DNA of 64,000 nt from an uncultured Spirochaetota bacterium (GCA_963734495.1 CAVTHK010000006.1:1-64000), one strand, 5' to 3'; counted from the first letter of the stretch, positions 37,273-61,489 are shown. A program made the numbers and translations. Notes: generated from the sequence alone by a model not told the origin.

Positions 37273-37327
37273 CTCCTGTGACCTGGCGCCTGCGCCAGAT
37301 CCCAAGCCCCTGTCCTCGGCGGGGCCC
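37273..37327 (-). promoter_or_regulatory. Two-hairpin 5'-leader motif, copy in front of cupin gene
   Basis: GGGCCCCGCCGAGGACAGGGGCTT-GG-GATCTGGCG-CAGG-CGCCAGGTC-AC-AGGAG; matches copies at 42051 and 61276. Confidence 0.65.
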
Positions 37328-37440
37328 ACTCGGCGGGGCCCGCGGTTGTCATCCTGTCCGCGCCACTGTATTCTGCGCGGTAGGCGTCCTGCAAGCCCGC
37401 CCGCGCTCGGGTCTCGTGCGTCTTCCGGAAGGAGGGTGCT

Positions 37441-38340
37441 ATGGTCACGTTCCCGATCGACACGAAGAATCGCAAGGTGCCTGTGATTCCTGCCAGAGGC
37501 GAGCGGCTGCGTCTGCTGATCGACACGGATGCGAAGAACGAGATCGACGACCAGTACGCCCTCGCCCTGGCGATCCACTCGCCGGACCGCTTCGACATCG
37601 AGGGGTTCGTAGCCGCCAATTTCGACAACGCCCGCGGCGGCCCCGACGGCGTCGACAAATCGGCGCGCGAGATCGAGCTGGTTCTCAAGAAGGCCGGCAT
37701 GGCGGGCCGGTGGCCCGTCAAGCGGGGCTCCGATCCGCTCCAGTACCAGTTCAAGCCGGTGATGAGCGAAGGGGTCGACTTCATCATTGAGCGTGCGATG
37801 GCGGGCACTCCGGACCGCCCCCTGTGGATCGTCGGCCTCGGGGCCGCGACCAACATGGCGTCCGCGATGCTCAAGGAGCCGCGGATCATCGAGCGCGTCG
37901 TGGTGTTCTGGCACTTCCGCACCCGCTGGCCGGAAAAGTGCTGGAACTTCAACGTCTTCGGCGACGTGCGGGCCGCGCGCCTGCTGTTCCACTCGCCGTG
38001 CTCCTTCGCGCTCTTCGACACGGGAACGCACCTGACGCTCCCCATGGAGGAGTCGGCGCAGAAGCTCGCGCCGCACGGCGAGCTCGGGCGCTACCTCCAC
38101 GAGTACCGGCTCACCGATCCCGGTTTTCAAAAGCCGACCAAGGGCTTCTACGACCTCGGCGACATCGCCGCGCTCCTCGACCCGGACCTCGCGTGCTGGG
38201 AGGAGACCGATTGCCCCGAAGTCCGCTGGGATCTGGTCTACGAGTTCACCGGGAGAATGGGGCGCATCCTGCGCTGCTACCACGTGGACCGGGACCGGAC
38301 GTTCCAGCTGCTCTTCGACAGGATCGCTGCCCGCGCGTGA
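37441..38340 (+). CDS. Nucleoside hydrolase (IUNH) family protein
   Basis: LIDTDAKNEIDDQYA, GLGAATN, NFNVFGD. Confidence 0.85.
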   Translation: MVTFPIDTKNRKVPVIPARGERLRLLIDTDAKNEIDDQYALALAIHSPDRFDIEGFVAANFDNARGGPDGVDKSAREIELVLKKAGMAGRWPVKRGSDPLQYQFKPVMSEGVDFIIERAMAGTPDRPLWIVGLGAATNMASAMLKEPRIIERVVVFWHFRTRWPEKCWNFNVFGDVRAARLLFHSPCSFALFDTGTHLTLPMEESAQKLAPHGELGRYLHEYRLTDPGFQKPTKGFYDLGDIAALLDPDLACWEETDCPEVRWDLVYEFTGRMGRILRCYHVDRDRTFQLLFDRIAARA

Positions 38341-38401
38341 CCGCGGGCAGGCGAATTGAGGCGAATTGCTCCCCGCGCGGCCTTTCGGTAACTTGAGAAG
38401 C

Positions 38402-39997
38402 ATGGATCCACTGCTGCTCGTCAACGGCGATTTCATCACCATGGACCCCACCCGGCCGCGCGTCCAGGCGCTGCTCGCCGAGGGCGAGCGGATCCGGGCG
38501 ATCGGAACCGATGCCGAGGTCTCCGCCCTCGCGGCTCCCGGCGCCCTGCGCATCGACCTCGGCGGCAAGACAGCGGTGCCCGGCTTCAACGACAACCACA
38601 TCCACGCGGTGAGCGGCGGACACCACTCCCAACGGGCCCTGCTCTACGGCATGGACGCCGACGCGATCATCGCGCACCTGCGCGAGCGCCACAACGGCAT
38701 CTCGAAGGGCGGGCTGATCAGCGGTTTCGGATGGGACTACGAGACCTGCCCGAATCCGCATCGGCGCATCCTCGACGAGGCCTTCCCCGGCCATCCCGTG
38801 GTGCTGCACCAGTTCTCGGGCCACGCGGTCTGGGCGAGCTCAGAAGCGTTGCGCAGGATGCGCATCGATCGCCGGACGCCCGACCCGCCGCATGGCAGGA
38901 TCATCCGCGACGAAGCCGGCGAGCCGACCGGGGTGCTGCGCGAGATGGGGAACAACCCCTGGCTTCGCAAGCAGTTCGCGCAGCGTCATTCGCACCCGCC
39001 GTCCATCAGGAAGTACCTCCTGAAGGCGATGGAGGACTACCGCAGGCTGGGGATCACGTCGGTGCAGGACAACACGTGGTTCCCTCCCGTGCTCGGCGTG
39101 CTGGCAGCGCTGCGGCGCGAAGGCCGGCTCACGACCCGCTTCGCGTACTGGTTCCACGGCGAGAGGCGGTGGGAGGCGCTGCTGATGCGGATGCGGCGTC
39201 TGAACGACTCCTGGCTGCGTCCGGGTCCGTGGAAATACTTCCTCGACGGCACGTTCTCGGCGAGGAGCGCCTGGCTCACGGAACCTTACGCCGACGAGAG
39301 CGAGCACAGCGGCCTCGGCAAGAGCCGCGCGCAGATCCTGCCGCTGCTCGAGCCCCACGTGCGCTCGCGCGACCCCCGCGGCCGTGAGCAGGTCGCCTGC
39401 CACGCCATCGGCGACCGGGCGATCCAGGAGTACCTCGACGCGGTAGAGGAGCTCTCGGCGCGCTACCCGTGGATCACCTCGATGCGCCTGCGCATCGAGC
39501 ACGGCCAGCTCATCCGCGGCGAGGACATCCCCCGGCTTCGACGGCTCGGAGTGGTGATCTCGGCGCAGCCCCACGCCCTCGGGACGCCTGAAAAGGACGC
39601 GCGGCTTCTCGGCGCCGGACGCGCGGAGCGCGCTTACCCCTATCGGTCGCTGCTCGACGAGGGGGTGGCCCTCTGCTTCGGCTCCGACTTTCCCGGCGAG
39701 CCGACGCTCGATCCCATGCTCGGGATCCACTACGTCGTCAACCGCAGCGGTCCGGAGCGGATCACCGTCGAGGAGGCGCTGCGCTGCTACACCGTCGGGA
39801 GCGCGTACGCGGAGTTCGAGGAGGACGCCAAGGGGAGCCTCGCGCCGGGCAAGATGGCCGACATCGCGGTGCTTTCCGCGGACCCGACCGCGGTCGCGAG
39901 CGAGCGGCTCCGCGAGATCCGAGTCGAGATGACGATCTCGGGCGGTCGCGTTGTGCACCAGCTCGTGCGTGACAAAAGCGCGGCGGCGGTGACGTAG
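38402..39997 (+). CDS. Amidohydrolase, YtcJ-like
   Basis: PGFNDNHIH, HAIGDRA, RIEHGQ, GSDFP, GSLAPGKMAD. Confidence 0.93.
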   Translation: MDPLLLVNGDFITMDPTRPRVQALLAEGERIRAIGTDAEVSALAAPGALRIDLGGKTAVPGFNDNHIHAVSGGHHSQRALLYGMDADAIIAHLRERHNGISKGGLISGFGWDYETCPNPHRRILDEAFPGHPVVLHQFSGHAVWASSEALRRMRIDRRTPDPPHGRIIRDEAGEPTGVLREMGNNPWLRKQFAQRHSHPPSIRKYLLKAMEDYRRLGITSVQDNTWFPPVLGVLAALRREGRLTTRFAYWFHGERRWEALLMRMRRLNDSWLRPGPWKYFLDGTFSARSAWLTEPYADESEHSGLGKSRAQILPLLEPHVRSRDPRGREQVACHAIGDRAIQEYLDAVEELSARYPWITSMRLRIEHGQLIRGEDIPRLRRLGVVISAQPHALGTPEKDARLLGAGRAERAYPYRSLLDEGVALCFGSDFPGEPTLDPMLGIHYVVNRSGPERITVEEALRCYTVGSAYAEFEEDAKGSLAPGKMADIAVLSADPTAVASERLREIRVEMTISGGRVVHQLVRDKSAAAVT

Positions 39998-40034
39998 CCC
40001 CGGGGACGCGGCCCGGCCCTCGCGGGGCCCCCGC

Positions 40035-41027
40035 TCAGGCCATGCGGTCCAGCATGTCGAGCGTGACCTCGTGCTCCAGCGGCTGCCCGGCGGCCCAGCG
40101 GCGGTATTCGTCGATCATGCTGTCCGCCATGCGCCGCACTTCGTCCCCCTTGGATCCTGCTATGTGCGACGAGAGCTGGACGTTCGCAAGCGAGTACAGA
40201 GGCGAGCCCGGAGCGGGAGGCTCGGGCCACGTGACGTCGAGGAGGGCGTTCAGGTCCGGCCGCTCGCGCAGGACGGAGATCAGGTCGGCCTCCACGACCG
40301 TGGCCCCGCGTCCCGTGTTGATAAAGGTCGCGTCCTTCCTCATCATGCGGAACAGCCGTCCGTTCAGCAGGCCGGCCGTCTCGGGCAGATTTGGCGTGTG
40401 GTTGGAGACGACATAGCCGCGCTGGAACGCCTCTTCGAGCGAAACCTTTTCAGCGCCGAGGCGGGCCGCTTCGGCCGCGTCGACGAACGGGTCGTAGATC
40501 AGGACGCGCAGGTCGACGCCCGCCAGCAGCTCGATGAGCCTGCGGGCGACCTTGCCGGCCCCCAGCAGCGAGACGCTCTCCCCGTAGCATCCGGGCCCCG
40601 AAAAGAAGGGCCCGCCGCCGCGGCCTGCCCGCTCCCTGACCTCGCGCGTGTTCCGGAACCAGCCCTTGCACGACAGGATGATCTGGGACAGCGCGAGCTC
40701 GGCCACGGGGACCGCGTTGGCGGCCCAGGCGCTCGACACCTTGATGCCGCGCTCGAGGAAAGGCCGCGCGAACCCCCGCACCGAGCCGGCCGCATAGAAG
40801 ACGGCCTCGAGCGACGGCAGCCGCGCTATCCGGGCCGCGTTCAGAGGCGGCATGCCCCACGTCGAGAACACGGCCTGGATGCCCGCGAGGGACTCGGCCT
40901 CCGAACCCGCGACCACGCGCGGATGCAGGTCCGCGATCTCCGCGATCCGCTGTCGCCGCTCGCGGTCGAAGACCGCCTCGAGCCGCTCCGCGTCGTCGCC
41001 GAAGAGCGCGACCCTGCGCCGTTCCAC
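40035..41027 (-). CDS. D-2-hydroxyacid dehydrogenase family protein
   Basis: ANAVPVAE, LGAGKVA, FINTGRG, LDVTWPEP, SSHIAG. Confidence 0.9.
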   Translation of the reverse strand: MERRRVALFGDDAERLEAVFDRERRQRIAEIADLHPRVVAGSEAESLAGIQAVFSTWGMPPLNAARIARLPSLEAVFYAAGSVRGFARPFLERGIKVSSAWAANAVPVAELALSQIILSCKGWFRNTREVRERAGRGGGPFFSGPGCYGESVSLLGAGKVARRLIELLAGVDLRVLIYDPFVDAAEAARLGAEKVSLEEAFQRGYVVSNHTPNLPETAGLLNGRLFRMMRKDATFINTGRGATVVEADLISVLRERPDLNALLDVTWPEPPAPGSPLYSLANVQLSSHIAGSKGDEVRRMADSMIDEYRRWAAGQPLEHEVTLDMLDRMA

Positions 41028-41034
41028 CGGCGGC

Positions 41035-42044
41035 CTACCGGTACTGGTGCGGCCCGAAATCCGCCTCGTAGAAGGGCGACACGCTGTCTCCGGGAGGCAC
41101 GATCGCGTCGATCTTTGCGAGCTCGTCCCCGCTGAAGCGCACGACGGGCGCGCCCGAGGTTGTCCTCGAGCTGCTCCATGGTCCGCGGGCCGATGATCGG
41201 GCTCGTGACGCCGGGCCTCTGCGCGACCCACGCGAGAGCGAGCTGCGCCATCGTGCAGTCCTTCGATCGGGCCATCGCAGCCAGCGCCTCGACGACGTTC
41301 CAGATCGCGGCGGTCTTGCGCTCGGCCAGGCGCGGGTTGTCCGCGGTGTCGGAGTAGCGGCTCGTCCGGCGGGTTGGGGTTGCTCCGCGTGTACTTGCCC
41401 GTGAGCAGGCCTCCGGCGATCGGGCTCCAGGGGATGACCGCGTACCCGTAGGTGCGCGCCATCGGGATGAGCTCGCGCTCGACGCGGCGGTCGAGGATGT
41501 TGTACGGCGGCTGCTCCGAGACGAAGCGGTTCAGCCCCAGCTCCTTGGCGACCCAGAGCGCCTCGACCGCCTGCCACGCCGCGAACGTGCTGGTGCCGAT
41601 GTAGCGCACCTTGCCGGCGCGCACGAGGTCGTCGAGCGCCCGCAGCGTCTCGTCGATCGGGACGTCGCTCTGCGGCCTGTGGATCTGGTACAGGTCGATG
41701 TAGTCGGTCTGCAGGCGGCGCAGGCTCGCCTCGCACTGCTCGATGATGTGGCGGCGCGTGTTTCCCGATGCGTTCGGGTCCTCGTCGTCCATCTTGCCGT
41801 GGACCTTGGTGGCCAGCACGACCTTGGCGCGCTGCCTGTTGCGCTTGAGCGCCTCGCCGGTGATCTCCTCGCTGCGGCCGCGGCTGTAGACGTTCGCGGT
41901 GTCGAGGAAATTGATCCCCGCGTCGAGCGCGCGGTCGATGATCGCGTACGAGTCCTGCGGCTCCGTCCGCCTGCCGAACATCATGCACCCGAGACAGAGC
42001 TCGCTGACCTTGACGCCGGTGCGTCCCAGAGATCTGTATTCCAT
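41035..42044 (-). CDS. Aldo/keto reductase, frameshifts near 41365 and 41150
   Basis: LGCMMFG, DTANVY, IDLYQIH, GKVRYIG, WSPIAGG; IIGPRTMEQL and FYEADFG in other frames. Confidence 0.9.
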
Positions 42045-42050
42045 CGGTCT

Positions 42051-42152
42051 CTCCTCTGACGTGGCGTCTTCGCCAGGTCCCAAGCCCCGAGTACTCGAGG
42101 GGCCCGCCGTGGCGTCTGTCGCCAGCGTCCCAAGTCCCTGCGCTCAGGGGGG
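42051..42152 (-). promoter_or_regulatory. Two tandem copies of the two-hairpin 5'-leader motif in front of aldo/keto reductase
   Basis: Proximal GGGCCCCTCGAGTACTCGGGGCTT-GG-GACCTGGCG-AAGA-CGCCACGTC-AG-AGGAG; distal CCCCTGAGCGCAGGGACTT-GG-GACGCTGGCG-ACAGA-CGCCACGGC. Confidence 0.65.
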
Positions 42153-42173
42153 CGTCGTTGCGGGTCCGCTGTG

Positions 42174-42202
42174 AGTATACGAACGCGGCCGAGCCGGGTC
42201 AA
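42174..42202 (-). promoter_or_regulatory. sigma70 promoter TTGACC-N17-TATACT for aldo/keto reductase operon
   Basis: Near-consensus boxes and spacing. Confidence 0.75.
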
Positions 42203-42257
42203 AAAAACTGAAGGTCGACGGGCGGCCGGCCGCGCCGCGAGCGGCCGCCGCGCTCCG

Positions 42258-43124
42258 TCAGCGGGAGCGCATGGCCTCCCAGGCGCGGGCCGCGATCAGG
42301 CTGCGGACGCTGATGGCGGCGAACACGACCACTCCGCCGGCGATCGCCCACGGCCCGGGCCGCTCGCCCAGGAACACGAGCACGAGGATCGGGTTGAGCA
42401 CCGGCTCGATCATCAGGATGATCGCCGACTCGACCGCCCTCACGTGCCGGATCGCCCGCGAATAGAGCATGTTGGAGAGGCCGAGCTGCACCGTCCCGAG
42501 AAAGATCAGGGCGCCCCAGCTCGCCGCGTCCGGGGCGCGGCCGACCGCCCAGGGGGCGCAGACGACGGCCGTGATGACGTTCCCGAGGATCAGGGATCCG
42601 ACCGGAGAGCCCGCCTTCTGGTACCGAAGGAGCAGGTGCACCCAGGCGAACGCGACGCCGCTCACGATCGCGAGCACGTTGCCCCACGACCCGGCGATGG
42701 TCAGGCGGTCGAAGAAGAACAGCACGAGGCCGCCGAGCACGACCGCCAGCGAGACCCAGTCGAACCTCGAGATGCGCTCGCCGAGCAGCCAGAAGCTGAA
42801 CAGGGCCACGAAGACCGGAGCGGAGTACTGAAGGAGGATGGCGTTCGCCGCCGTGGTGAGCTTCGTGGCCGCGACGAACGTGATCATCGCGATCGCGTGC
42901 GCCGCGCCGCACAGCAGCTGCGCCGCGCTCCACTGGAAGCGCGGACCCTTCGCGGTGGCAAAGAGGAACACCGCCGCGATCACGCTGCGGATCCCCGCCG
43001 TGGCGAGGGGGCCGAGGTTCACCAGCTTGATGAACAGCCCCCCGGACGCCCACAGCGTCGCCGTCAGCGCTATCATGAGGTCCGCGGCAGCGGGCTTTGT
43101 CGCAGTCGGTGTCAGAGGGTTCAG
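42258..43124 (-). CDS. EamA/DMT family transporter (start CTG 43124 or ATG 43076)
   Basis: [37 protein letters not shown]; ten TM segments. Confidence 0.9.
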
Positions 43125-43185
43125 CGGCGGCTCCAGGTGCGCCGCAGTGTAGCCGGAGCGCGCCCGCGCTGTCGAGGGCCGCGCA

Positions 43186-43219
43186 GCTCCCCTGCGCTCC
43201 CCTGCGCTCCCCTGCGCTC
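43186..43219. repeat. 10-bp tandem repeat (GCTCCCCTGC) x3.4
   Basis: Directly visible in the intergenic gap. Confidence 0.85.
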
Positions 43220-43231
43220 GCGCCTGCCGGC

Positions 43232-44612
43232 TCAGCCCTGGCCCGCACTGCCCGCCGGGCTGGACAGCGCGTAGCGCGCGGCCTCGCCCATGAGGCGCAG
43301 CGCCTCCGCGATGCGCTCGCTCTCCTCGAAGCCGTAGGAGATGCGCAGCTGGCGGCGGCCCGCCTCGACGAGCGAGCCCTTCCGGTGGACGCAGATCTCG
43401 CCGGGGATGTAGATCACGCGCGGCAGCGGCGCGCCCGGAGGGCCGTCGACCGCGGAGTCGCCCGTGCGCCGGGTGAGGAAACGGAAGAAGGGGCTGCGCT
43501 CGTGCGTCTCGACTCCGGCGAGAGTCAGGTAGAAGTAGAAGCCCGCGCGCCCCCCGCGGCACTCCTCGACCAGGCCGCCCAGGTGCCGCCTGATGTCCGC
43601 GGAGGCCGCCAGCGCCTTCTCGCGGTAGCCGGCGCGCACTCTCGCGATCTGAGCGTCGATGGCGTTGTCCAGCAGCCAGCTCGCGATCTCCTGGTTGACC
43701 AGCGGCGCGCTGAAGCCGAGGTCGCTCGTGCTCTGAACCACGGCGTCGAGCAGGGGCCCGTCGCGGCCCACGAGGTAGCCGATGCGCAGACCGGGGGCGA
43801 GGATCTTCGACAGCGTGCCGAGCTCGTACACCAGCCCCGCCTCGTCCCACGCGAAGCCCGACGCGGGCGCCGCGACGGCCGGATCGTGCACCAGGTCCTC
43901 GTACGCGCGGTCGAAGACCACCGGCACGCGGCGGCCCAGCGCGCGCGAGAGGCGCGTGGCGAGGCGCACAATGCCTTCGCGCTCCCGGTCGGCGAGGATC
44001 GTGGAAGTCGGGTTGCTCACGGTCACGAAATAGAAGAAGGACACCTCGGACTGCACCGGCCCGAGCGCGGCCACCGCGGCTTCGACGTCCGCGGCGTGAA
44101 CGCCGTCTGCGGCTTTCGGGCACGGCGAGGACGCGGAAGCCCTTGCGCTCCAGGGTGTTGCAGTAGATGTAGTACATCGGGTCGGTGGTCACGACGATGC
44201 CCGGCGGCAGGGAGTCCGCGAGCGAGGCGAGGAGGCTGGTGACCCCATTGGCGCCGACGACGATGCGCCGGTCTGCGAGCAGCCGCTCGTCGAGGCCGCC
44301 GGCCTGGTGGCGGAGAAGGTAGCTTCGGATGGAGGCGATCAGGTTGGGCGAGCCGGCGGGGCCGCCGTAGTTGAGCGCGTTCCTGTACCGGACCGGGTCT
44401 GCCAGCACCTGCTCGAGCGCCTCGAGCACCAGGCCGCGCGGGATGGTGTGCTCGTTCACGTAGCCGACGCCGAGGTTGATGTCGACGTCCTCGCGGAAGT
44501 CGGCGGCGAACTCCGCCATCATGCGAGCTACGGGCGCGGGGGCCCGCGACGCCCACCCGTAGGCCGAAAGCGATTCCCCGAGCTGCAGAGTGCCGCTCCC
44601 TGTCAACGCCAT
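43232..44612 (-). CDS. PLP-dependent class I/II aminotransferase, frameshift near 44110
   Basis: [44 protein letters not shown]. Confidence 0.88.
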
Positions 44613-44683
44613 GCGGCGATCCTACCACGCAGCCGGCGGGCGGGCCAACGGCCCGGATCCCGCGCGCGGACGCATCCGCGGAG

Positions 44684-46341
44684 CTACAACAGACTCTCGC
44701 GCCCGAGCCCGAAGAAGCGGTTGACGAAGAACAGGCTCAGTCCCGTGACCGCGAGAAGGATCGTCGACATCGCGGAAGCGGGCCCGAAGTAGCCGTCGAG
44801 CACCGAGAGGTAGATGCGGATGGGCATCGTCATCGTGTGCCCCACGTAGAGAAGGATCGAGGCCGAGATCTCGTTGATGGCCGTGACCCAGCTCAGGATC
44901 GCGCCCGAGATGACCCCCGGAAGCATGAGAGGCAGCGTCACCTTGCGGAACGTGCGCGCGGGCGGCGCTCCGAGGTTGATGCCGGCCTCCTCGAGCGCCG
45001 GGTCGATCTGCTTGAGAATCGAGGCGCCCGAGCGCACCGCGTACGGAAGGCGCCTGATGAAGTACGCGAGGATCACGATCGTCGCTGTGCCCAGCAGGAA
45101 CAGCGGCTTGCGGTTGAACGCGATGATGAACCCGATGCCGATCACTGTTCCGGGCACGATGTACGGAATCATGAGCAGGGGATCCAGAACCTGGGCCGGG
45201 GCGGTCTTGCGGCGGCTGATGACAAAACCGAGCAGGGTGCCGATGACGACGATGAGCGACCACGGATGCGGTCGAGAAGAGAAGGCTGTTCGTGATGGTC
45301 TTGGGGACCTCGTGGAAGACCCTCGCGTAGCTCTCCGAGACTGAGCCCCGGCTGGAAAACCGGCCCCCTGGTTCTGCGGAACGAGAAGTACACGACGATC
45401 GCGAGGGGGATCGCGCTCAGGCCCACGATCAGGTAGCTCACAAAGTGCGCCCAGAAAGCCGGGAGGCCGTGAAGACGCTTGACGACCGGGCGATTGATCA
45501 GCGTGCTGGAGTACTTGCGCCGTCCCGCGGCGTACCGCTGCAGGAAGATCACGGCGGAGGCGCACAGGATGAGGAAGATGCTGACGGTCGAGGCGAGGCC
45601 CGGGCGCTCTCCGACCTCGCTGGTGAACAGGTTGTAGGCAAGCGTCGGCAGGACCCGGTAGTTCGCCGCCGATGATCATCGGCGTGTCGAAGTTGGACAG
45701 ACACATCATGAAGACGAGCAGCGCGCCCGCGGTGACGGACGGGAGGACCAGGGGCAGGGTGACGCGGAAGAACTTGCGGAGCCCCCTGGCCCCCAGGTTC
45801 TCCGCCGCCTCCTCGAGCGAGCGGTCGACCGTGGACAGCGCCCGACGACGCGAGGAGGAACACGTACGGGTAGTGATGCAGCGCGTAGACCAGGATGATC
45901 CCGACCGGACCGTAGATCGGCGGGAGCTGCAGCCCGATGTCGAGGAGCGCCGTGCGAAGAACCCCCGAGCGGCCCAGGAGGATGATCCAGGAGTAGGCGC
46001 CGATGAACGGCGGCGACAGCAGCGCGAGAACGGCAAACGTCGCGAGGATCGAGCGGCCGGCGATGCGGAAGCGCGTCGTCAGGAACGCGAGCGGCACGCC
46101 GAGGAGAGTGGCGCCGATCGTGCCGCCCACGGCGACCACGATCGTGTTGAGAAACGCGACCCGGTAGTAGCTCTTCCCGAAGAACTCGCGCGTAGTTGGC
46201 GAGGGAGAGCGCGCCGGTCTCCTTGTCCAGGAAGCTGAACTTGAAGATGTTGACGAGCGGGTAGACCAGGAAGAAGGCGACAATCGCGTAGCCGAGGACC
46301 GTGACAAACGTCCAGAAGCCCGGCCGTTCCCCGCGTCTCAC
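44684..46341 (-). CDS. Fe3+/AfuB-type ABC transporter permease (double), about 5 frameshifts
   Basis: Two EAA motifs (LEEAAENLGA, LEEAGINLGA), PPFIGAYSW, PGTVIG in alternating frames. Confidence 0.88.
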
Positions 46342-47414: not shown

Positions 47415-47570
47415 CTCCCCGCCCCAACGAGTGCCATTGAGCTGAAATGAGCGCGTGCCGCCGCCGGGGCCCCGCGGAGACCCTCCGCGGGGCGGACCCG
47501 GGGCAGGCGGCACCGAGCCTGTCGGACTTACGGCAGGCGGTCGCTCGCGCCCCTGCCGGTTGTCCCGGCG

Positions 47571-47614
47571 CCCGGCGAGTACGCCGGGTCAAAGCCTGGC
47601 GGGTACGCCAGGTC
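47571..47614. repeat. Two tandem REP-like hairpins
   Basis: CCCGGCG-AGTA-CGCCGGG-TC and CCTGGCG-GGTA-CGCCAGG-TC. Confidence 0.7.
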
Positions 47615-47640
47615 AGGGCACACGGCGGACCGCGGCCGGG

Positions 47641-48623: not shown

Positions 48624-48657
48624 CAAGGACTCCTTTCCCACGTTGTGAGCTTCCCCA

Positions 48658-49269: not shown

Positions 49270-49323
49270 GAGCGGCATCTTGTCCGGGGATGGAGACCCG
49301 GTCAAGCCGAGCCGGACGCGGCG

Positions 49324-50253: not shown

Positions 50254-50326
50254 AGCGCGACTATAGCACTCGAGGGCTTGCCGCGCGAGAGAGACGCCGC
50301 GAAATTGTTCCGGCGGGGCGCCCGGC

Positions 50327-51331: not shown

Positions 51332-51504
51332 CTGCCGCTCCTTCCGCCCCGGACCCTCGTCCCGGCGCAAGGCAACTCATACCACTTCGAGGCAGGTCGA
51401 CTCAACTCGCCCATGGCGCCGACGCGGCCGCCGTGGTCCGGCATCTGTTCCCGGCGGGTCGGGCATGCTATCCTCGACCCGACGCCGCCCGGGAGGAAAT
51501 GCCG

Positions 51505-52734
51505 ATGTCGAACGAGAGCGTGCCTCTGGGCAAAAGGATCGCCGGGTTCTTCGGCCTGAATGCGAGCATGGTCGCCATGATCACGCTCGTCGTGTTCATC
51601 GGGCTCGGGGAAAAGATGGCCGAGCGCTTCCTTCCCCTGTACCTCCTCGCCCTCGGCGGCTCCGTCTACGCCGTCGGGTTCCTCAACGCGATGGACAACC
51701 TGCTGTCCGCCCTGTACTCGTTTCCCGGCGGTTGGGTGTCCGACCGCATCGGGTACAAGCGCGCGCTGATCCTCTTCACGCTCGTCGCGATGGCCGGCTA
51801 CCTGCTGGTGATCTTCGTCCCGACCTGGTGGGCCGTGCTCGTCGGCGCCGTCTTCTTCATCTCGTGGACCGCGATCTCGCTGCCGGCGGTCATGAGCCTG
51901 GTCGCGCAGGTCATGCCGACCGACCGGCGCATCATGGGCGTGACCGTGCACTCGTTCGTGCGCCGCATCCCCATGGCGCTCGGCCCGATCCTCGGCGGCG
52001 TGCTCATCGGCATCTACGGCAAGGTCGCCGGCGTGCGCCTCGCGTTCGTCGCGGCGCTCGCCCTGGGCGTCGTCGGCATCCTGTGCGTCCAGCTCCTGAT
52101 GAAGGACGAGACGAAAAAGAAGAAGGCGGCCTCCGGCAGCCTCCTCGCGAGCCTTCGGGGCATCAGCCCCGCCCTTCGCAACCTCCTCGTGTCGGACATC
52201 CTCATCCGGTTCGCCGAGCAGATCCCGTACGCGTTCGTCGTCGTGTGGGTCGTCGAGAACAACGGCCTGAGCGCGCTCGAGTTCGGCGTGCTCACGACGG
52301 TCGAGATGGTCACCGCGATGCTGGTCTACATCCCGGTGGCGTACCTGGCGGACCGGTCGACCAAGAAGCCCTTCGTGCTGATCACCTTTGGCTTCTTCAC
52401 GCTGTTCCCGCTGGTGCTGCTCGGGTCGCGCACGTTCCCGATGCTCGTCCTCGCGTTCGTGATCCGCGGCCTCAAGGAGTTCGGGGAGCCGACGCGCAAG
52501 GCGCTCATCATGGACCTCGCCCCCGAGGACGCGAAGGCCCTGACGTTCGGCGCGTACTACCTCGTGCGCGACGTGATCGTGTCGATCGCCGCGCTCTCGA
52601 GCGCGTTCCTGTGGAGCATCTCGCCCGCGACGAACTTTCTCGTCGCGGCGGCGTGCGGCGCGGTGGGCACGCTCGTGTTCGCCATCTTCGGCCGCAACGC
52701 GACCCGCGCGGAGGACGCACCACAAGCCGCCTGA
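51505..52734 (+). CDS. MFS transporter
   Basis: GGWVSDRIGYK motif A, 12 TM pattern. Confidence 0.9.
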   Translation: MSNESVPLGKRIAGFFGLNASMVAMITLVVFIGLGEKMAERFLPLYLLALGGSVYAVGFLNAMDNLLSALYSFPGGWVSDRIGYKRALILFTLVAMAGYLLVIFVPTWWAVLVGAVFFISWTAISLPAVMSLVAQVMPTDRRIMGVTVHSFVRRIPMALGPILGGVLIGIYGKVAGVRLAFVAALALGVVGILCVQLLMKDETKKKKAASGSLLASLRGISPALRNLLVSDILIRFAEQIPYAFVVVWVVENNGLSALEFGVLTTVEMVTAMLVYIPVAYLADRSTKKPFVLITFGFFTLFPLVLLGSRTFPMLVLAFVIRGLKEFGEPTRKALIMDLAPEDAKALTFGAYYLVRDVIVSIAALSSAFLWSISPATNFLVAAACGAVGTLVFAIFGRNATRAEDAPQAA

Positions 52735-53190
52735 GCGCGGGCGGCACGCGGCACCCGCAGCCTCTTGATCAGCGGCGATCTGTGCGCGTTACACGGACGC
52801 CAACTTTCTTGGGTCAAAGTGCGCGCATCAAAACTCACCGAGGCGCCATCGCGGCACGCTCCGGTGGTCCAGCCGGCCTGAAGCGCCGCACGGCGGCCGG
52901 CCTCTACCCGGAAGGGCTTTCGCCACTTCGCGTGGCGGAGCCGCGCGCGCGAAGCCTTGTGGGGCGCATCCGACCCGGCTTTCGACGCCGGGTTGTTCTC
53001 GCAGGAACTCCGCCGGCGAGCCGTGTCAGGTCCCGCCGGCCTTGCGGGGAAGTCGCGGCTTACGGAGCGGGCGGGCTGGGGCGGATAAGACCGCGCTCAG
53101 CGATGACGCAGGGAGCTCTCGCCGCGCGATGCGTCGCGACTCGAGAGAAGCCTGTCCTCGCCGATCAAGACACGCTATACTGGAGTCGGG

Positions 53191-53415
53191 ATGAGCTACA
53201 TCGACAGAATCACAATTGACCCGAATCGCCGCTCAGGGAAGCCGTGCATCCGTGGGACGCGCATCACCGTCTACGACGTGCTGGAGTACCTGGCTGGGGG
53301 CATGTCGATAGAAGAGATCCTGGCCGATTTCGTCGAGTTGCACCGAGAGGACATACAGGCGGTGCTTGAGTTCGCGGCCGATCGCGAGCGCCGACTCATG
53401 ACCGTCTCAGCATGA
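53191..53415 (+). CDS. DUF433 antitoxin (VapB45-like)
   Basis: RITIDP..SGKPCIRGTRITV..EEILADF..EDIQA. Confidence 0.93.
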   Translation: MSYIDRITIDPNRRSGKPCIRGTRITVYDVLEYLAGGMSIEEILADFVELHREDIQAVLEFAADRERRLMTVSA

Positions 53416-53756
53416 AGCTTCTGCTCGACGCGAACCTGTCTTGGAAGCTCGTCGCTGCCGCTCGCAGGTGGTTCCCGGGTTCGGAACACGTCGTCGCGGC
53501 CGGCCTTGGCGGGGCGACGGACCGAGACATCTGGGAGTACGCAAAGTCCAACGGGTTCGCCATTCTGTCGAAGGACACTGACTTTCGTCAGCTCAGCTTT
53601 CTATACGGCGCGCCGCCTAAGGTCATCTGGCTGAACATCGGCAATCGACCGACTTCTGAGATTGCAGCCATGCTCGAGCAGCAGCATGGGGCGGTGCAGC
53701 GCTTTGACGACTCGGCCGAGGCACTCCTCGTCATCGCTGCGGCAGAAAGGCTTTAG
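53412..53756 (+). CDS. DUF5615 PIN-like toxin (VapC45-like)
   Basis: MKLLLDANL, DRDIWEYA, SKDTDF, PPKVIWL; ATGA overlap. Confidence 0.92.
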   Translation: MKLLLDANLSWKLVAAARRWFPGSEHVVAAGLGGATDRDIWEYAKSNGFAILSKDTDFRQLSFLYGAPPKVIWLNIGNRPTSEIAAMLEQQHGAVQRFDDSAEALLVIAAAERL

Positions 53757-53802
53757 AGAGCGCGACGCGGCGATTTGCCGGACGACAGCGTACGCCCAGG
53801 GC

Positions 53803-57016
<3,214 letters not shown>

Positions 57017-57095
57017 GATGCCCTCGCTTCCATGGATGGAAGCGCCCGCGCGCACATGGACGTAGCAGCGCGCGGGCAGCCTCGAAGCGTGGTCA

Positions 57096-57124
57096 ATGAT
57101 ACCATACATTTGTTTGGTATTCAA
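57096..57124 (-). promoter_or_regulatory. dnaE2 promoter TTGAAT-N17-TATCAT with candidate LexA box (57103-57116) in spacer
   Basis: Plus strand CATACATTTGTTTG; same register as the lexA promoter box. Confidence 0.8.
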
Positions 57125-57208
57125 GAGCAGCGACGGCACGCTCGCGGGCGGACAGCGTGCAGTGTACAATCGGCACGAAAAGTCTTGGATCCAAAAGGAA
57201 GGGAATTC

Positions 57209-57805
57209 ATGAAACAACGGCAGAGCCTCGTGATCGGTGTCCTCCTGGCCGTCGCATTCTCGGCAGGCGCGCAGGACTTCTCGCAGGGCCTCGGAGTCCG
57301 GGGCGGCATCGGCACGGACATCACATTCGGAGGCGTCGCTTGCGGGGTCGGAGTCAACAAGCTCCTGGGCGAAGAGCTCGAGATCGGCCTGCAATTCTAC
57401 TATGGAAGCTTCGAGGAGACGGACAAGGAAGCAGTCAACACCTACGTCGACACGACGAAAGTGACCGCTTTCACCGCTCTCGCGAACCTTCTCTACGGGT
57501 ACCACCGCGGCGAAAGCGGATTCTTCTTTCTCACCGGCGTAGGTCTCGGCTATCTCGGGGTCAACTGGGAAGAGAGGAGCGACACCGACATGACCCTCGG
57601 CACGCTTCTCCCGGGCGGCGGAAGCAAGCAGACGTTCGACGGCAGCGCCGGAGGGCTCATTCTGAACCTGGGCGCCGGATACGCGATTCCCGGCGGCATG
57701 GACGTGCGGTTCGAGGTCCCCATCGTGATCGCGATCGGGGACACCGGCGGAGCGTCGCACATAATACCGCTGTTCACGCTCACCGCCGGATACCGTTTCC
57801 GCTAG
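57209..57805 (+). CDS. Outer-membrane beta-barrel protein (8-strand type)
   Basis: Signal peptide, amphipathic strands, ends LTAGYRFR. Confidence 0.75.
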
Positions 57806-57991
57806 ATCGGGCACGGTCCGCCGTGCCCAGACCCGCGGAAGCGGCGGGAACGGCGGTCAGCCGCAAGTCCGACAGGCTCATGGACGCGGGCCCGCGGACG
57901 CCTGGACGCTGATGGAAAAGGGCCGGCGGGCTGCCGCGAACGGCCCTTCGCCAATCCGGTGAGCCGGAGGAGCGCACTGCTGCTTGCCCAC

Positions 57992-58486
57992 TCAGGAGCG
58001 GGCAAGCAGCAGCTGCATCAGGCGTACGTCGATGTAGCGGCCGAACTTGTAGCCGACTTCGCTCATGGTGCCGACGAGGCGGAAGCCGGCGCGCTCGTGC
58101 AGGCGCACGCTCGGCTCGTTGTCGCCGGCGATGCGCGCGAGGACCGTGTGCAGCCGCGCCTCGCGGCCCGCGGCGAGCAGCTGCTCCATGAGCCGGCCCC
58201 CGATCCCCTGGCCGCGGCGGCCCTGCTCGACGTAGATCGAGATCTCGGCCGTGCCGTCGTACGCGGGCCGGTCCGACCACCGCGAGAGCGACGCCCAGGC
58301 GACGACGGCGGCGCCGTCGACGGCGACGAGGACGGGGTGGCGCGCGTCGTGAAGCGCGAGCCAGTCCACGATCTGCCGCTCCGTCCTCGGCTCCGTGTCG
58401 AAGGTGGCCGTGCTGCTGACGACCGCGTCGTTGTAGATCTCCGCGATCGCCGCGCAATGCTCGCTGGCAGCCGGTGCGATTTGCAT
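57992..58486 (-). CDS. GNAT N-acetyltransferase (YncA/MnaT/phosphinothricin type)
   Basis: IYNDAV..STATFD, EISIYV, RGQGIG, NEPSVRLHE..GF, GYKFGR. Confidence 0.92.
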   Translation of the reverse strand: MQIAPAASEHCAAIAEIYNDAVVSSTATFDTEPRTERQIVDWLALHDARHPVLVAVDGAAVVAWASLSRWSDRPAYDGTAEISIYVEQGRRGQGIGGRLMEQLLAAGREARLHTVLARIAGDNEPSVRLHERAGFRLVGTMSEVGYKFGRYIDVRLMQLLLARS

Positions 58487-58517
58487 GCGTTCTCCTATGT
58501 CGGCGCCGCCGCGGGCC

Positions 58518-59993
58518 TCAATCCACGTATCCCTGCAGCACCCAGCCGCGCGTGCCCAGGTCGCGGTAGAGCCACTCGATCCGCCCCTCGGGCCCCTCGG
58601 CAAAGTAGTATTCGCGATCCGCCTCGCCGCCGTTCCACCAGGAGCCCGACAGGGCGTAGGGGCCTCCCACAAAGCGACTCGCGGAGCGGCCCGCGAGCGG
58701 CCGCGCGCCCAGAGGCCGCGGCGCCTCCAGGATGCGGCGCACCAGCACGGGAGCCTGCGCAGCCGGCGTCTCGTCGCCGCCCCCGCCCGCGCGCTCCGGC
58801 TCCGGGCGCGCCTCCACCCACGCGTACTGCCGCTCCGGAAGGTGCTCGTCCACCGGCTGCGCCTGCACCACCGCGTCGTTGCCGAGCTCGGCCCGCAACC
58901 GCGCAAAGGCGCGGGCCGCGGCGGCGAGATCGCGCCTGGGGCGCCTGCGGAAGAGCTCCGGCTGCACATCCTGCGCCTTTGTCCGCTCCGCGTCGAGCGC
59001 GATGCGCACGACCGGCGAGCCGAGGGCAAGCGAGGCGAGCCGCAGGTCGAGGAGCTCTAAAAGAAGGCTGCGGCCCCGCGTCGGTTCCGCAGGCTTCAGG
59101 CTCTCCCGCAGCGTCTCCCCGCGCTCCAGGCCGAGCGAAAGGGAGATCTCGACGGCGAGCTCGCCCTTGTGCCGCAGGTCCGCGATCAGCCGGTCGAGGA
59201 GCGCGGCCGCGTGGAGCATCAGCCGGCCGCGGTCGGCCTCGGGCGCGGCGAGCCGGCGCGCGAGCGCGAGCGGCTCAGCCGGCGGATCGGCCTGGATCGG
59301 GAGCGCCAGGCCGCCGGAGGCGAAGCGCCAGGCCGCCTCGGCCTCGGCCCCGTAGCGGCGGAGCAGGCCGCCCGGCGGCAGCCGCAGGAACGCCTCCACC
59401 GTCCGCACGCCCAGCCGCGCGAAGCGCTCCTCGAGCCGCGGCTCGAGGCCCAGCACGGCGAGCGGCGCGTCGAGGGCGAGCCGCCGCTCCTCCTCGGGGC
59501 TGGCGAGCACGCGGGCGCCCCGTCGGCCGCGCGCCGCGGCGTAGCACCCGAAGCGCGTAAAGCCGACCGCCGCCCGCGCGGCCAGCTCCGCGCCCTGCAG
59601 CGCCTCCAGCACCGCGCTCACCCACCCCTCGAGCGAGCCGTAGAGCTCCTCGAGGCCGGAGGCGCCCACCCAGAAGACGCCGGGCTCTTCGCGCTTCGGC
59701 TCCACCTGCGGGCTCGCCCCGCGCAGCAGGCCGCCGATGAGCTCGACGCCCGCCGCGATCTCGTCCGCGGCGACGGGCGCGGCCCGCAGCTCCGGCGCCA
59801 GCGCCAGCGCGGTGGCGTAGCGCATCCCCGCGGCCACGCCCGCCCGCCGCGCCCGGCCGTTGGCTGCCAGCACGGGCGCGAGCGGCCTGTCCTCGGCCAC
59901 GACGGCGGCGGGGTGGCGGCGCCAGGCCTTTTCCCGCCGCAGCAGAAGCTGCAGCGCGAGCTGCGGCACGTCAACGCAGGCCAGCCGGCCCAT
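58518..59993 (-). CDS. imuB: ImuB, inactive Y-family polymerase-like mutasome subunit
   Basis: ACVDVP, ARRAGVAAGM, C-terminal GPYALSGSWW..REYYFAE; between imuA and dnaE2. Confidence 0.88.
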   Translation of the reverse strand: MGRLACVDVPQLALQLLLRREKAWRRHPAAVVAEDRPLAPVLAANGRARRAGVAAGMRYATALALAPELRAAPVAADEIAAGVELIGGLLRGASPQVEPKREEPGVFWVGASGLEELYGSLEGWVSAVLEALQGAELAARAAVGFTRFGCYAAARGRRGARVLASPEEERRLALDAPLAVLGLEPRLEERFARLGVRTVEAFLRLPPGGLLRRYGAEAEAAWRFASGGLALPIQADPPAEPLALARRLAAPEADRGRLMLHAAALLDRLIADLRHKGELAVEISLSLGLERGETLRESLKPAEPTRGRSLLLELLDLRLASLALGSPVVRIALDAERTKAQDVQPELFRRRPRRDLAAAARAFARLRAELGNDAVVQAQPVDEHLPERQYAWVEARPEPERAGGGGDETPAAQAPVLVRRILEAPRPLGARPLAGRSASRFVGGPYALSGSWWNGGEADREYYFAEGPEGRIEWLYRDLGTRGWVLQGYVD

Positions 59994-60630
59994 GGCAGCT
60001 CTCCCCGCAGCGCCAGCCCGCGCCCCGGCGCTTGTCCTTGAGCGGCCGCAGCTCGCAGCGCCAGCGGAAATCCCCGAGCCTCTCGCTGCGGCACAGCGCG
60101 CGCAGGCTCACGGTAGAGCTGTCGCCGATCGGGCCCGCGCCCGCGAGGCAGAGCAGCGCCGTGTCGTGCCTGCGCGCAAGCTGCGCGAGGCGCGCCTGGG
60201 CCGAGGCGCGGACGCGGGCGGCCGCGAGCCCCGCCAGGTCCACGACGACGAGGCCGAAGGCGCCGGACCGCAGCAGCCGGTCGGCCGCGCGCGCGGCCTG
60301 CGGCGCGTCGGCGACGCGCACCACCGGCAGCCGGTCGAGCGCCACGCCGTTGGCCGCCATGTCGGGGGGAAAGAAGACCGCGGTGCCCGCGGCGATCCAG
60401 CAGGCAGGCTCGCCGCAGGACTGCGCTTCGAGCACGAGACGGCAGGCGAGGGAAAGGCTCCCCTGCCCCGCGAGCTCGGTGAGCCGTCCGGCCAGCGCGG
60501 CCAGGCTCCAGGGCCGTTCGCCGGAGAGCCGCTCCTCCAGCGCCGCCGCGCGGACCAGCCTGAGGAACGGCGTCGCCTCGCGTGCGGAGGGCGTGGACGC
60601 CGATACGGACATTCCGGGCATCGCAGCCAT
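59971..60630 (-). CDS. imuA: ImuA, RecA-like mutasome subunit
   Basis: GRLTEL, FFPPD..GVALDRL, LLRSGAFGLVVVD; degenerate Walker A; cassette context. Confidence 0.85.
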   Translation of the reverse strand: MAAMPGMSVSASTPSAREATPFLRLVRAAALEERLSGERPWSLAALAGRLTELAGQGSLSLACRLVLEAQSCGEPACWIAAGTAVFFPPDMAANGVALDRLPVVRVADAPQAARAADRLLRSGAFGLVVVDLAGLAAARVRASAQARLAQLARRHDTALLCLAGAGPIGDSSTVSLRALCRSERLGDFRWRCELRPLKDKRRGAGWRCGESCHGPAGLR

Positions 60631-60643
60631 CGGCGCGTAACCT

Positions 60644-61270
60644 CTACGTGATCGGCCCCTCGTAGGAGCGCCGCACCTCGAGCACCTTGCCGAGGATGGA
60701 GAAGCGCTCGCCGTCCGACGCATCCGGCACGATCGGCTCGTAGGCGGGATTGGCGGGGTGCAGCTCCACCCTTCCCTTTACGATTCTGAAGGTCTTGACC
60801 GTCGCCTCCTCGCCTGATAGAGCCACGACGATGTCGCCCGGCTCCGCCGTCGGCTGCTGCCGCACGACCACGACGTCGCCCTCGAGGATCCCCGCGTCGC
60901 GCATGCTGTCGCCCTTGACCCGCAGGGCGAAGAGGCGCTCCTGCGGCGTCCGCGACCGGACCGCGAGCATGCCCTGAGCATCCTCGATCGCCGTGGTGAG
61001 CGGACCGGCCGCGACGCGGCCGAGCAGGGGGATCGAGACCACGGGTGCGGCGCCCCCGCCGGCCAGGCGGTAGGCCCGCGCCTTGTGCGGCTCCTTGGCG
61101 AGGCGCCCCTCGGCCACGAGCGCCTCGAGGTGCTCGCGCGCGCTCTGCACCGAACGGAAGCCGAACGCCTCCTGCACCTCGCGCACCGTCGGGGGAGAGC
61201 CCGCCGCAAGACGGTCGCGGACAAACGCGAGCACCCGGCCGCGGGTCTCGCCCGGCTCGCTGTACGCCAT
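60644..61270 (-). CDS. lexA: SOS repressor LexA
   Basis: PPTVREVQ HTH, GRVAAG cleavage site, GDSM, ATVK. Confidence 0.96.
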   Translation of the reverse strand: MAYSEPGETRGRVLAFVRDRLAAGSPPTVREVQEAFGFRSVQSAREHLEALVAEGRLAKEPHKARAYRLAGGGAAPVVSIPLLGRVAAGPLTTAIEDAQGMLAVRSRTPQERLFALRVKGDSMRDAGILEGDVVVVRQQPTAEPGDIVVALSGEEATVKTFRIVKGRVELHPANPAYEPIVPDASDGERFSILGKVLEVRRSYEGPIT

Positions 61271-61275
61271 ACTCG

Positions 61276-61321
61276 CTCCTATGACCTGGCTTCGCCAGGT
61301 CCCAAGCCCGCTTGCGGGCCC
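61276..61321 (-). promoter_or_regulatory. Two-hairpin 5'-leader motif, copy in front of lexA
   Basis: GGGCCCGC-AA-GCGGGCTT-GG-GACCTGGC-GAA-GCCAGGTC-AT-AGGAG. Confidence 0.65.
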
Positions 61322-61325
61322 GGCA

Positions 61326-61354
61326 AGAATAGCATACATATGTATGGCAGTCAA
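61326..61354 (-). promoter_or_regulatory. lexA promoter TTGACT-N17-TATTCT with perfect palindrome CATACATATGTATG (61333-61346)
   Basis: Near-consensus promoter, 14-bp palindrome in spacer. Confidence 0.85.
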
Positions 61355-61489
61355 GGTGAAGTAAAAATTGAAGGCACCGCGCGGCCGCGTGAGGGCGGCG
61401 ACCGCCGACCCTGCCTTCAACTTTTGTCGATTTCCTGCGTTCCCGACGACTATCAAGTGTTCGACCGGCAACGAAGAACGGGAGGGAAC

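Follow-up and report, generated by a model that had tools for sequence, protein, structure and literature searches.

Three unrelated genes in a stretch of DNA from an uncultured Spirochaetota bacterium, encoding a cupin, an aldo/keto reductase (AKR) and LexA, are each preceded by the same short sequence, which can form two hairpins (P1 and P2) and runs directly into the Shine-Dalgarno (SD) sequence of the gene. The question this raises is what kind of element is involved: a regulatory leader controlling a set of genes that includes lexA, a module affecting the stability of the messenger, or a repeat that has come to lie at start sites. The answer reached here is that the element behaves as an interspersed repeat and not as a conserved regulon, and that it is probably a genus-specific, non-autonomous repeat docked at the SD sequence, which it regenerates. 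The stretch analysed (hereafter the window) is 64,000 nt long and corresponds to positions 1-64000 of contig C6 of a genome, G000, that totals 5.38 Mb over 18 contigs (GC content 66-69% depending on the contig, completeness about 83%); the only other genome of its genus (g1) is that of a sister species, G001, which is 99% complete. Positions outside the window are given as contig or locus followed by co-ordinate.

The element and its three copies in the window

All three sites lie on the minus strand and share a consensus that runs from P1 (GGGCCC..GGGCTT) through a GG linker, P2 and 2 nt to AGGAG, with a start codon 4-8 nt further on; P2 at these sites has the form GAYCTGGCG-loop-CGCCAsGTC, i.e. 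GACCTGGCG-loop-CGCCAGGTC. The first-pass annotation of this DNA had described a two-hairpin motif next to the SD at these sites, and re-reading of the sequence finds it at each of them on the minus strand, the stems, GG linker and 2-nt gap to AGGAG having been given correctly. For searches, a covariance model (R1) with a 10-bp P1 and a 9-bp P2 was built from 20 aligned copies (alignment A2). The features that follow in this section are all on the minus strand.

Of the three, the copy with the best score (42051-42107, R1 E=1.4e-16) precedes the AKR gene, whose product matches the Pfam family Aldo_ket_red at 9e-65. Its P1 occupies 42082-42105, the GG linker 42080-42081 and P2, with one C.C-type mismatch, 42058-42079, followed by the SD AGGAG (42051-42055) and the ATG (42042-42044). 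Lying head-to-tail with it, at about 42108-42153, a degenerate unit of the internal type can be recognised by eye (R1 reports none there), reading ..CCCCCCTGAGCGCAGGGACTTGG GACGCTGGCG ACAGA CGCCACGGC. The cupin copy (37273-37329, E=2e-13) has P1 at 37304-37327, GG at 37302-37303, a 9-bp P2 with loop CAGG at 37280-37301, the SD AGGAG at 37273-37277 and a Pfam-supported ATG at 37262-37264, the translated product matching Cupin_2 at 1.7e-18; directly upstream (37328-37341, again by eye) the 5' arm of P1 is partially duplicated (GGGCCCCGCCGAGT). The lexA copy is a short form (61276-61323, E=1.7e-10), with a P1 of 7 bp and loop CAAG (61304-61321), GG at 61302-61303, a P2 of 8 bp and loop GAA (61283-61301), AU at 61281-61282, the SD AGGAG at 61276-61280 and the lexA ATG at 61268-61270; its minimum free energy (MFE) fold, at -31.4 kcal/mol (z -3.2), leaves the SD single-stranded, and the gene product carries the Pfam domains Peptidase_S24 and LexA_DNA_bind. 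The degenerate unit on the AKR side and the arm duplication on the cupin side had been missed by the first-pass annotation, as had some 42 further loci elsewhere in the genome.

Occurrence in the genome and docking on start sites

When R1 is applied to G000 it yields at least 73 matches at E<=1 and at least 60 units at E<=0.001, the latter grouped into at least 45 loci, a census that is a lower bound in that 150 of the 6326 first-look candidates were scored. Strict regular expressions give 13-24 matches in the genome and 0 in a reversed-sequence control, so that the motif seen at three sites in the window is far beyond chance.

The copies are strictly placed relative to genes. Among the R1 matches in G000, every unit ending in ..GTCAxAGGAG is followed by a start codon, and in 43 of the 45 loci an ATG, GTG or TTG lies 4-11 nt past the last G of the terminal GGAG, the two exceptions being a unit at a contig end (C2:259336) and a weak match (C3:166866, E=1.4e-4). 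As a baseline, 2146 of the 17475 AGGAG sites in the genome (12.3%) precede a start that opens at least 60 codons. One docked open reading frame (ORF) has only 37 codons; it is the start of sdhB, looks frameshifted, and has the same start in a relative (L040). None of the R1 matches is opposite in orientation to its neighbouring gene and none lies at a 3' end. The random orientation and position of a simple repetitive extragenic palindromic (REP) repeat, which the first-pass annotation had set down as speaking against its proposal, is thus not what is found: all terminal units are co-oriented with the gene and docked on its start site, the 3' end of the repeat being itself the SD, usually AGGAGG, of the downstream gene.

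Some of the weak R1 matches (C13:332556, C16:80325, C11:642355, C3:55979 and C9:86193) are simple hairpins of the type CCGGCG-AGTA-CGCCGG, and that at C9:86193 is followed by TTTTT and looks like a terminator. Hairpins capped G-AGUA-C or G-GGUA-C may form a larger family in G000, one that gave rise to P1 and P2.

The gene calls used for G000 are ORFs derived here and filtered by GC content at third codon positions (GC3), and are incomplete. Many ORFs begin as a good protein and continue as a long Arg/Pro/Gly-rich tail (e.g. C11:358911, C15:130421, C16:199753); the AKR ORF in the window (40036-42044) has 669 codons, yet its Pfam match stops at residue 228, while the sdhB ORF stops after its 37 codons. 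Such overlong or broken ORFs look like the result of indel errors in the assembly, which would account for a completeness of 83% in a genome of 18 contigs.

Structure and covariation of the two hairpins

A MAFFT alignment of 23 sequences has 97% of the P2 cells paired, with two-sided changes at 5 of the 9 P2 pairs. A larger set comprises 47 units from G000, G001 and two metagenome relatives, making 45 distinct rows; these were aligned by fitting to R1, which favours the structure, and in that alignment 88.8% of cells are paired (97.5% for P2) as against 80.3% in shuffles. Double changes occur in 13 of the 19 pairs, giving 66 double-change cells where 20 were expected, a number reached by 0 of 500 shuffles, and in slid controls pairing drops to 30-47%. 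Both hairpins are thus supported by compensatory changes. Variants of P2 include GACCTGGCG paired with CGCCAGGTC, GACTTGGCG with CGCCAAGTC, GACGTGACG with CGTCACGTC, GACTTCGCG with CGCGAAGTC and GACTTGCCG with CGGCAAGTC. P1 is in several copies a perfect 10-bp stem closed by a tetraloop (e.g. GGGCCCGCCG-GGCA-CGGCGGGCTT); its commonest variant, GGGCCCCTCGAGGACTCGGGACTT, has internal mismatches. Two stretches are invariant, the CTTGG that joins the helices and the tail (G)TCAxAGGAG.

G-U pairs had also been offered as a sign that the structure belongs to RNA of the sense strand, an argument that fails on counting: among the 45 distinct units 83 of 88 G.U cells fall at two fixed basal positions of P1, and outside these there are 5 G.U against 30 C.A cells. 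The assignment of strand rests instead on the SD and on gene orientation. By MFE the hairpins are stable (-25 to -34 kcal/mol per unit), and the predicted fold leaves the SD unpaired in 4 of the 5 copies analysed. RNAalifold, on the other hand, proposes for 23/23 seeds a pairing between CUU and the AGG of the SD that would enclose P2 and occupy part of the SD; this pairing is without covariation support, because neither side ever varies.

Distribution and downstream genes

Of 92 genomes in the order, R1 finds the element in two, G000 and G001, both of genus g1, with 5 matches in G001 and none in the 90 other genomes, which represent seven other families (61-137 candidates scored per genome, with stricter filters). 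An exact-pattern scan of one genome from each of 185,579 species returned only the G001 contig and one match without a P2 stem, and the same pattern in 241 million metagenome records returned seven contigs, two of which are true copies from close relatives. A match in Eisenbacteria (L034) and the other five of the seven metagenome matches lack the P2 helix, score 17-20 bits, and were treated as chance.

The first-pass annotation had recognised no known riboswitch here, and comparison with Rfam agrees: at gathering thresholds the 64-kb window gave 0 matches, and for 8 element loci at E<=1 only a Pyrobaculum snoRNA model appeared, at 24 bits (gathering threshold 59) and outside the element.

The downstream genes are functionally unrelated. 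Pfam was searched with 18 downstream proteins, of which 15 matched, all in different families: cupin, aldo/keto reductase, LexA, MBL-fold hydrolase, PfkB kinase, a 3-hydroxyisobutyrate-dehydrogenase-like enzyme, HpcH aldolase, zinc alcohol dehydrogenase, an oligopeptide ABC ATPase, CutA, RidA, FeS_assembly_P, glyoxalase, a NuoB-like subunit with ferredoxin domains and a solute-binding protein. Translation identifies as further carriers DapA, 6-phosphogluconate dehydrogenase (6PGDH) and alanine dehydrogenase (alaDH), with orthologues at 79-92% identity. No functional theme is visible among these genes.

Filled and empty orthologous sites

Most copies are species-specific, G000 holding many more than G001, and comparison of orthologous genes in the two species provides direct examples of filled and empty sites (a solidus here marks each end of the insert). 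At 6PGDH the site is filled in G000 (..ATAAAGAG/GGCCCG...CATCATAG/GAGAAAACAGATG) and empty in G001 (..GTAAGAGGAGGGACAGGATG), and once the insert is removed the leaders align, TAAAGAG/GAGAAAACAGATG in G000 against TAAGAGGAGGGACAGGATG in G001. The opposite arrangement is seen at an rnfA-like gene, where G001 has a three-unit array, ..GCCTGAGGAG/GGCTCC...GTCATAGGAG/CATCGCATG, with TGAGGAG as its 5' flank, while G000 is empty (..GCCGAGAGGAGCGTGGCATGA, that is ..GAGAGGAGCGTGGCATG), the SD lying inside the upstream gene with an ATGA overlap. At alaDH it is again G001 that is empty (..CGCGAGGTCCTATGA, the genes overlapping), the filled site in G000 reading ..CGCGAG/GGTCC...GTCATGG/GAGACGCGATGA; the flanks compare as CGCGAG/insert/GAGACGCGATG with CGCGAGGTCCTATG, and the distance from GAG to ATG is 5 nt in both. 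In this last case (G000 C9:368307-368387) the ORF of the upstream aminotransferase crosses the 81-nt element in frame, gaining about 30 codons and a new ATGA overlap. In these clean pairs the insert lies between two GAG triplets, the 3' triplet belonging to the working SD.

The remaining comparisons are less simple. At dapA G000 has three units and G001 a run of about 150 nt of similar, diverged hairpins that are not scored by R1. At lexA G001 keeps the promoter hexamers, but its 59-nt leader is unrelated; by eye that leader might be taken for a decayed copy (GGCTGGG..GACGC..CAGG..GGAG), an idea rejected on its best R1 score with filters off (E about 4.7). The gene divergent from lexA in G001 has a weakly element-like leader (L035:926-990, plus strand, R1 E=0.078) that ends GGGAG-N7-ATG and may, from its sequence, be a decayed copy. 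A target-site duplication of GGAG was also considered; it fits L024 and L026 in G001 and C10:345765 in G000, and does not fit most first units.

Arrays, nesting and mosaics

Units are also arranged in tandem, as many as 5 per array and with a 48-nt period, at C1:335590-335837, C1:382389-382587, C7:239955-240103, C13:54934-55132 and elsewhere. Internal units of these arrays are without TCATAG and join as ..CACG/GAG/GGCCCC, and a single P2 variant is common to all units of an array, which suggests local duplication. At about 10 loci an extra P1-like hairpin together with TCTACGA is nested inside the P2 loop, giving units of about 81 nt. Copy number also varies between close relatives: at the sdhA-sdhB junction a metagenome relative (87% identity) carries a single unit, against two in G000, and relative L041 (89-94% identity) has a two-unit array (L041:628-730) at the locus corresponding to G000 C3:~64780-64850, where G000 itself retains only P2 and the nested hairpin, with GGGGG replacing GGAG, and is missed by R1. 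GC-rich imperfect palindromes, extragenic position, many copies (60 units in 45 loci) and mosaics are also what characterises elements of the REP/BIME class.

A repeat that ends in the Shine-Dalgarno sequence

The element is a mosaic of P1 and P2 joined by CTTGG, with the SD as its 3' end (..P2-AU-AGGAG-N4-8-start), and is probably a genus-specific, non-autonomous interspersed repeat. How it spreads, and whether it affects translation, we infer as follows. The repeat would spread by duplicating, or by inserting itself, within the narrow interval immediately before a start site, whether between promoter and SD or between an upstream stop codon and SD, and in doing so would duplicate or regenerate the native SD core (GAG...GAG), leaving the gene with a strong SD at its native spacing; since a strong SD is kept, the element could accumulate at start sites, and apparently nowhere else. 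Tandem arrays would then grow through local duplication. The two stable local hairpins, by folding on themselves, would keep the adjacent SD from pairing with a GC-rich leader or with the upstream cistron, so that the element might act as a natural 'RBS insulator' (RBS, ribosome-binding site), neutral to mildly beneficial to its host.

A role of this kind in translation is plausible on the basis of predicted folding. When the region from -120 to +30 around starts was folded, bases between AGGAG and the start codon had a mean unpaired probability of 0.49 in 39 carrier genes and of 0.38 in 300 controls whose SD contains GGAG (Mann-Whitney p=6e-6), and for the same 39 loci with the element removed in silico it was 0.43 (Wilcoxon p=0.02 against the carriers), a gain in accessibility that is modest and that has to be read in the knowledge that the control starts are heuristic and many G000 ORFs look frameshifted.

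The modest size of this gain is one of several points that weigh against the reading just given. The element has no terminal inverted repeats, its ends being GGGCCC.. and ..GTCATAG, and the absence of TCATAG from internal array units (period 48, not 54) is not explained by repeated re-insertion. GAG is found on the 5' side of only about one third of the 45 first units in G000, so that bracketing by GAG is a tendency and not a rule. Not every locus offers a simple empty site: at lpdA the G001 copy has GGGAG on both sides and the G000 spacer is unrelated, while at lexA the sister species has, as noted, an unrelated 5' untranslated region (5'UTR) of similar length. Variants such as that at G000 C3:~64790 escape R1, which is a further reason to take the census as a lower bound. 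Finally, no candidate for the mobilising enzyme has come to light, PF01797 (Y1 transposase/RAYT) being found neither in G000 (83% complete) nor in G001 (99%), both draft metagenome-assembled genomes. The same search gave matches in 6 of 14 control genomes, and mobilisation by an IS200/IS605 or RAYT system, which had been considered because the element has two subterminal hairpins, is strand-specific and has GGAG on both sides, is therefore not supported.

Among other known types of sequence that were considered, integron attC sites were rejected, the loci being dispersed in conserved housekeeping operons and having no GTTRRRY core. A sigma-54 or sigma-70 promoter inside the element was rejected on grounds of misfitting spacing and because P2 covaries as a helix, its sequence not being conserved. 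A mini-ORF (TTG..TAG) within the unit was also rejected: it is in frame in the 57-nt and lexA forms and not in those with 5-nt loops or nested hairpins; moreover, TAG is absent from about 40% of copies.

Alternative explanations

A more active version of the same idea, put forward here only tentatively, is that the element is a self-propagating RBS cassette aimed at the GAG/GGAG core of the SD, wiring genes including lexA into a common translational control. The nested copies are housed by the P2 loop, whose sequence is often GAGGA and so resembles an SD, a placing compatible with insertion aimed at GAG/GGAG; use of the SD-like AGGA of the element's own P2 loop as a target would explain the nesting. 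The pre-folded two-hairpin platform would then set translation initiation of the captured gene, and a genus-specific factor could read the single-stranded CUUGG and AUAGGAG. Were this so, the mechanism of spread would be a new one, neither inverted repeats nor a Y1 transposase having been found.

It is rather unlikely that the leader exists to be bound by a trans-acting factor (an RNA-binding protein reading CUUGG/AUAGGAG, a small RNA form, or CsrA) that co-regulates the carriers, lexA included. Sequence-specific recognition of unpaired bases presented on helices would suit a pattern in which the stems covary and invariance is greatest in the single-stranded CTTGG and GTCAxAGGAG tail, and tandem arrays could multiply the binding sites. 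The core of a CsrA site is A-N-GGA, and a CsrA-regulated leader typically has GGA in hairpin loops together with one at the SD; the genome has one CsrA gene, AUAGGAG fits this core, every copy has the GGA at the SD, and many P1 and P2 loops read AGGA. Against CsrA, the loop GGA is not conserved, the loops also reading AAGA, CAGA, GGCA, GGUA, AGUA and CAAG. The CUU:AGG pairing predicted by RNAalifold might form a switch, in competition with the weak GGG:CUU base of P1; with CUU and AGG invariant, the CUU:AGG pairing lacks covariation support. A set of sites read by such a factor is also difficult to reconcile with the lack of any functional theme among the downstream genes and with the behaviour of orthologous sites: among four G000 carriers checked one (dapA) has an array, a drifted one, in G001, and neither of two alignable G001 carriers is filled in G000. 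It must be said that if a ligand or protein were found to bind CUUGGGAC or the hairpins specifically, the case for a repeat would be weakened.

Quite unlikely, too, is a module for the stability or processing of messenger RNA that guards the 5' end of the downstream message, whether made by transcription initiation or by cleavage between cistrons, against 5'-end-dependent decay, or the 3' end of the upstream one against 3' exonucleases. There are precedents, since stabilising and cleavage effects are reported for REP, ERIC, BOX and Correia repeats in passages of PMC3049150 and PMC12306157, and a plastid intercistronic expression element, which acts in a comparable way, is described in PMC2230500. 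The stability of the present hairpins would fit, as would their setting. About one third of the loci are intercistronic (a same-strand ORF stops within 50 nt upstream at 13-15 of 45), the element filling the whole gap, and in several loci the stop codon touches it (gTGAgggcc, gTAAgggccc, cTGAagggccc), so that it constitutes the entire intercistronic spacer. At lexA a sigma-70-like promoter (TTGACT-17-TATTCT with TG, 61326-61354, minus strand; 1 site in the scan against 0.1 expected) has a -10 that ends 2 nt before the R1 match; the element would therefore be essentially the entire 5'UTR and, with transcription predicted to start on the first Gs of P1, the message would begin with a stable stem. 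Promoter-like sites of this kind occur within 200 nt upstream at 5 of the 45 loci, compared with 32 of 2000 random windows (1.6%). They include one before the two-unit AKR leader (TTGACC-17-TATACT, 42174-42202, minus strand, 10/12 matches, 1 site against 0.0 expected), whereas for the cupin gene no promoter-like site passed the scan. The gap from -10 to element at the five loci is, however, 2, 29, 35, 66 or 76 nt, so that what is constant is the distance of the element to the SD (2 nt) and not that to the end of the transcript. A 5'-terminal stabiliser can accordingly be discarded as a general role, lexA being the only locus with a -10 directly before the element, and the hairpins are not followed by a terminator-like U tract.

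A riboswitch governing access to the SD through a ligand, or an RNA thermometer, is very improbable: a structured leader does stand beside the SD, and two partners are available to its CUU, the 5' GGG of P1 and the AGG of the SD, but there is no conserved ligand pocket in an element of only about 55 nt whose loops and distal stems vary freely and whose lexA copy is shortened in both hairpins, the SD is predicted to be free in most of the MFE folds, Rfam offers no match, and tandem arrays, unrelated downstream genes, restriction to one genus and instability at orthologous sites are all unexpected for such a sensor. A riboswitch would normally be associated with one pathway and conserved across taxa; here there are 15 families among 18 proteins, and 2 of 92 genomes. 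The proposal in the first-pass annotation of a riboswitch or conserved regulon including lexA is for these reasons unlikely.

Comparison with known repeats

The closest analogues are the MIRUs, which according to passages of PMC12548453 'insert themselves at start codons', with an internal ORF coupled at -4 nt, 'with minimal impact on expression'. As described there they are, like the present repeat, short, apparently mobile, oriented with the operon, placed at translation starts and found in tandem copies. The likeness extends to position, orientation and filled and empty sites, and preserved expression would follow here from the regenerated SD. In contrast, those passages have MIRUs keeping expression by means of a coupled mini-ORF, where the present repeat would do so by an SD and two hairpins. 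No frame-consistent internal ORF coupled at -4 nt is found across the length variants of the element, because the frame shifts with loop length, and an ATGA overlap is seen only at the alaDH copy. MIRUs belong, moreover, to another phylum and have no sequence similarity to the element.

REP/BIME elements resemble it in several ways: they are GC-rich palindromes of 20-40 nt per unit, lie outside genes, are transcribed as part of operons, combine into mosaics and arrays, are specific to a lineage and number from tens to hundreds of copies. They differ in lying mostly 3' of genes or between convergent genes, in either orientation, whereas the present units are 5', co-oriented and fused to the SD, and in having a cognate RAYT, the family (PF01797) found in neither G000 nor G001. 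About half of the REPs of E. coli are close to termination codons, as stated in a passage of PMC12306157, and in the main text of that paper, on RepRanger, the terms Shine-Dalgarno, ribosome binding and start codon have 0 occurrences each.

The TAACTGA repeats of Beggiatoaceae occur as oriented groups of two to six tandem copies that end within a few nucleotides of the starts of unrelated downstream genes, with a translational role proposed and S1, Csp or CsrA as candidate binders (from passages of PMC4679880). Orientation, tandem arrangement and position just upstream of unrelated genes are shared; as those passages describe them, however, they are unstructured heptamers that replace canonical RBSs, while the present repeat is a pair of hairpins of 48-57 nt with a strong SD. 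Correia, ERIC, BOX, RUP and SPRITE elements and miniature inverted-repeat transposable elements (MITEs) are likewise non-autonomous, lineage-specific, strain-variable, co-transcribed and able to alter expression, and specificity for RBS position is not described for them in the passages of PMC3049150 on which this comparison rests. MITEs are marked by terminal inverted repeats and a fixed target-site duplication; the present element lacks terminal inverted repeats, shows no clear duplication of a fixed kind at its target site, and has no related insertion sequence.

In synthetic RBS insulators a self-folding structure just upstream of the RBS frees initiation from the influence of upstream sequence. 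The analogy with these is purely functional, between an engineered device and a natural, repeated arrangement with a predicted effect. No description of an SD-terminated hairpin repeat was found in the full-text literature, supplements and subscription journals being outside the scope of that search.

Other features of the window

The 17-nt spacer of the lexA promoter contains a perfect 14-nt palindrome, CATACATATGTATG (61333-61346, minus strand); the sister species (L035, about 850-870) has GAACATTTGTAT at this position and GTAGAACATCGC in the lexA leader. From its sequence the palindrome is a candidate LexA operator, one unusual for the lineage. On the plus strand a sigma-70-like site (TTGTCA-17-TATTCT, 37346-37374) lies before the gene divergent from the cupin, which starts at about 37442 with the SD GGAAGGAGG. 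In wetland and peat metagenomes the contig depth (at 85% likeness or more) over 46427-47748 and 54359-56341 is 10-100 times that of the rest of the stretch; presumably these segments are highly conserved parts of genes common to many organisms. Over 41800-61600, contigs of relatives from four such wetland or peat DNA runs are short, and none spans 42051-42160 or 61276-61323.

Implications

For annotation, the message is that structure and covariation alone do not justify calling leaders of this type riboswitches; such a call is unsafe because repeats selected for hairpin formation give the same signal. The element is not categorically new, in that it belongs among the small interspersed repeats. 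Such repeats are usually described as lying 3' of genes or scattered at random through intergenic DNA, and here is a family found only at ribosome-binding sites, in one orientation, and ending in the SD itself. If its docking reflects targeted insertion, this would be a new way for a selfish repeat to multiply within compact operons while gene expression is spared; and if the hairpins do insulate the SD in a genome of 68% GC, they would represent in nature what RBS insulators are in engineering, and a portable part ready for use.

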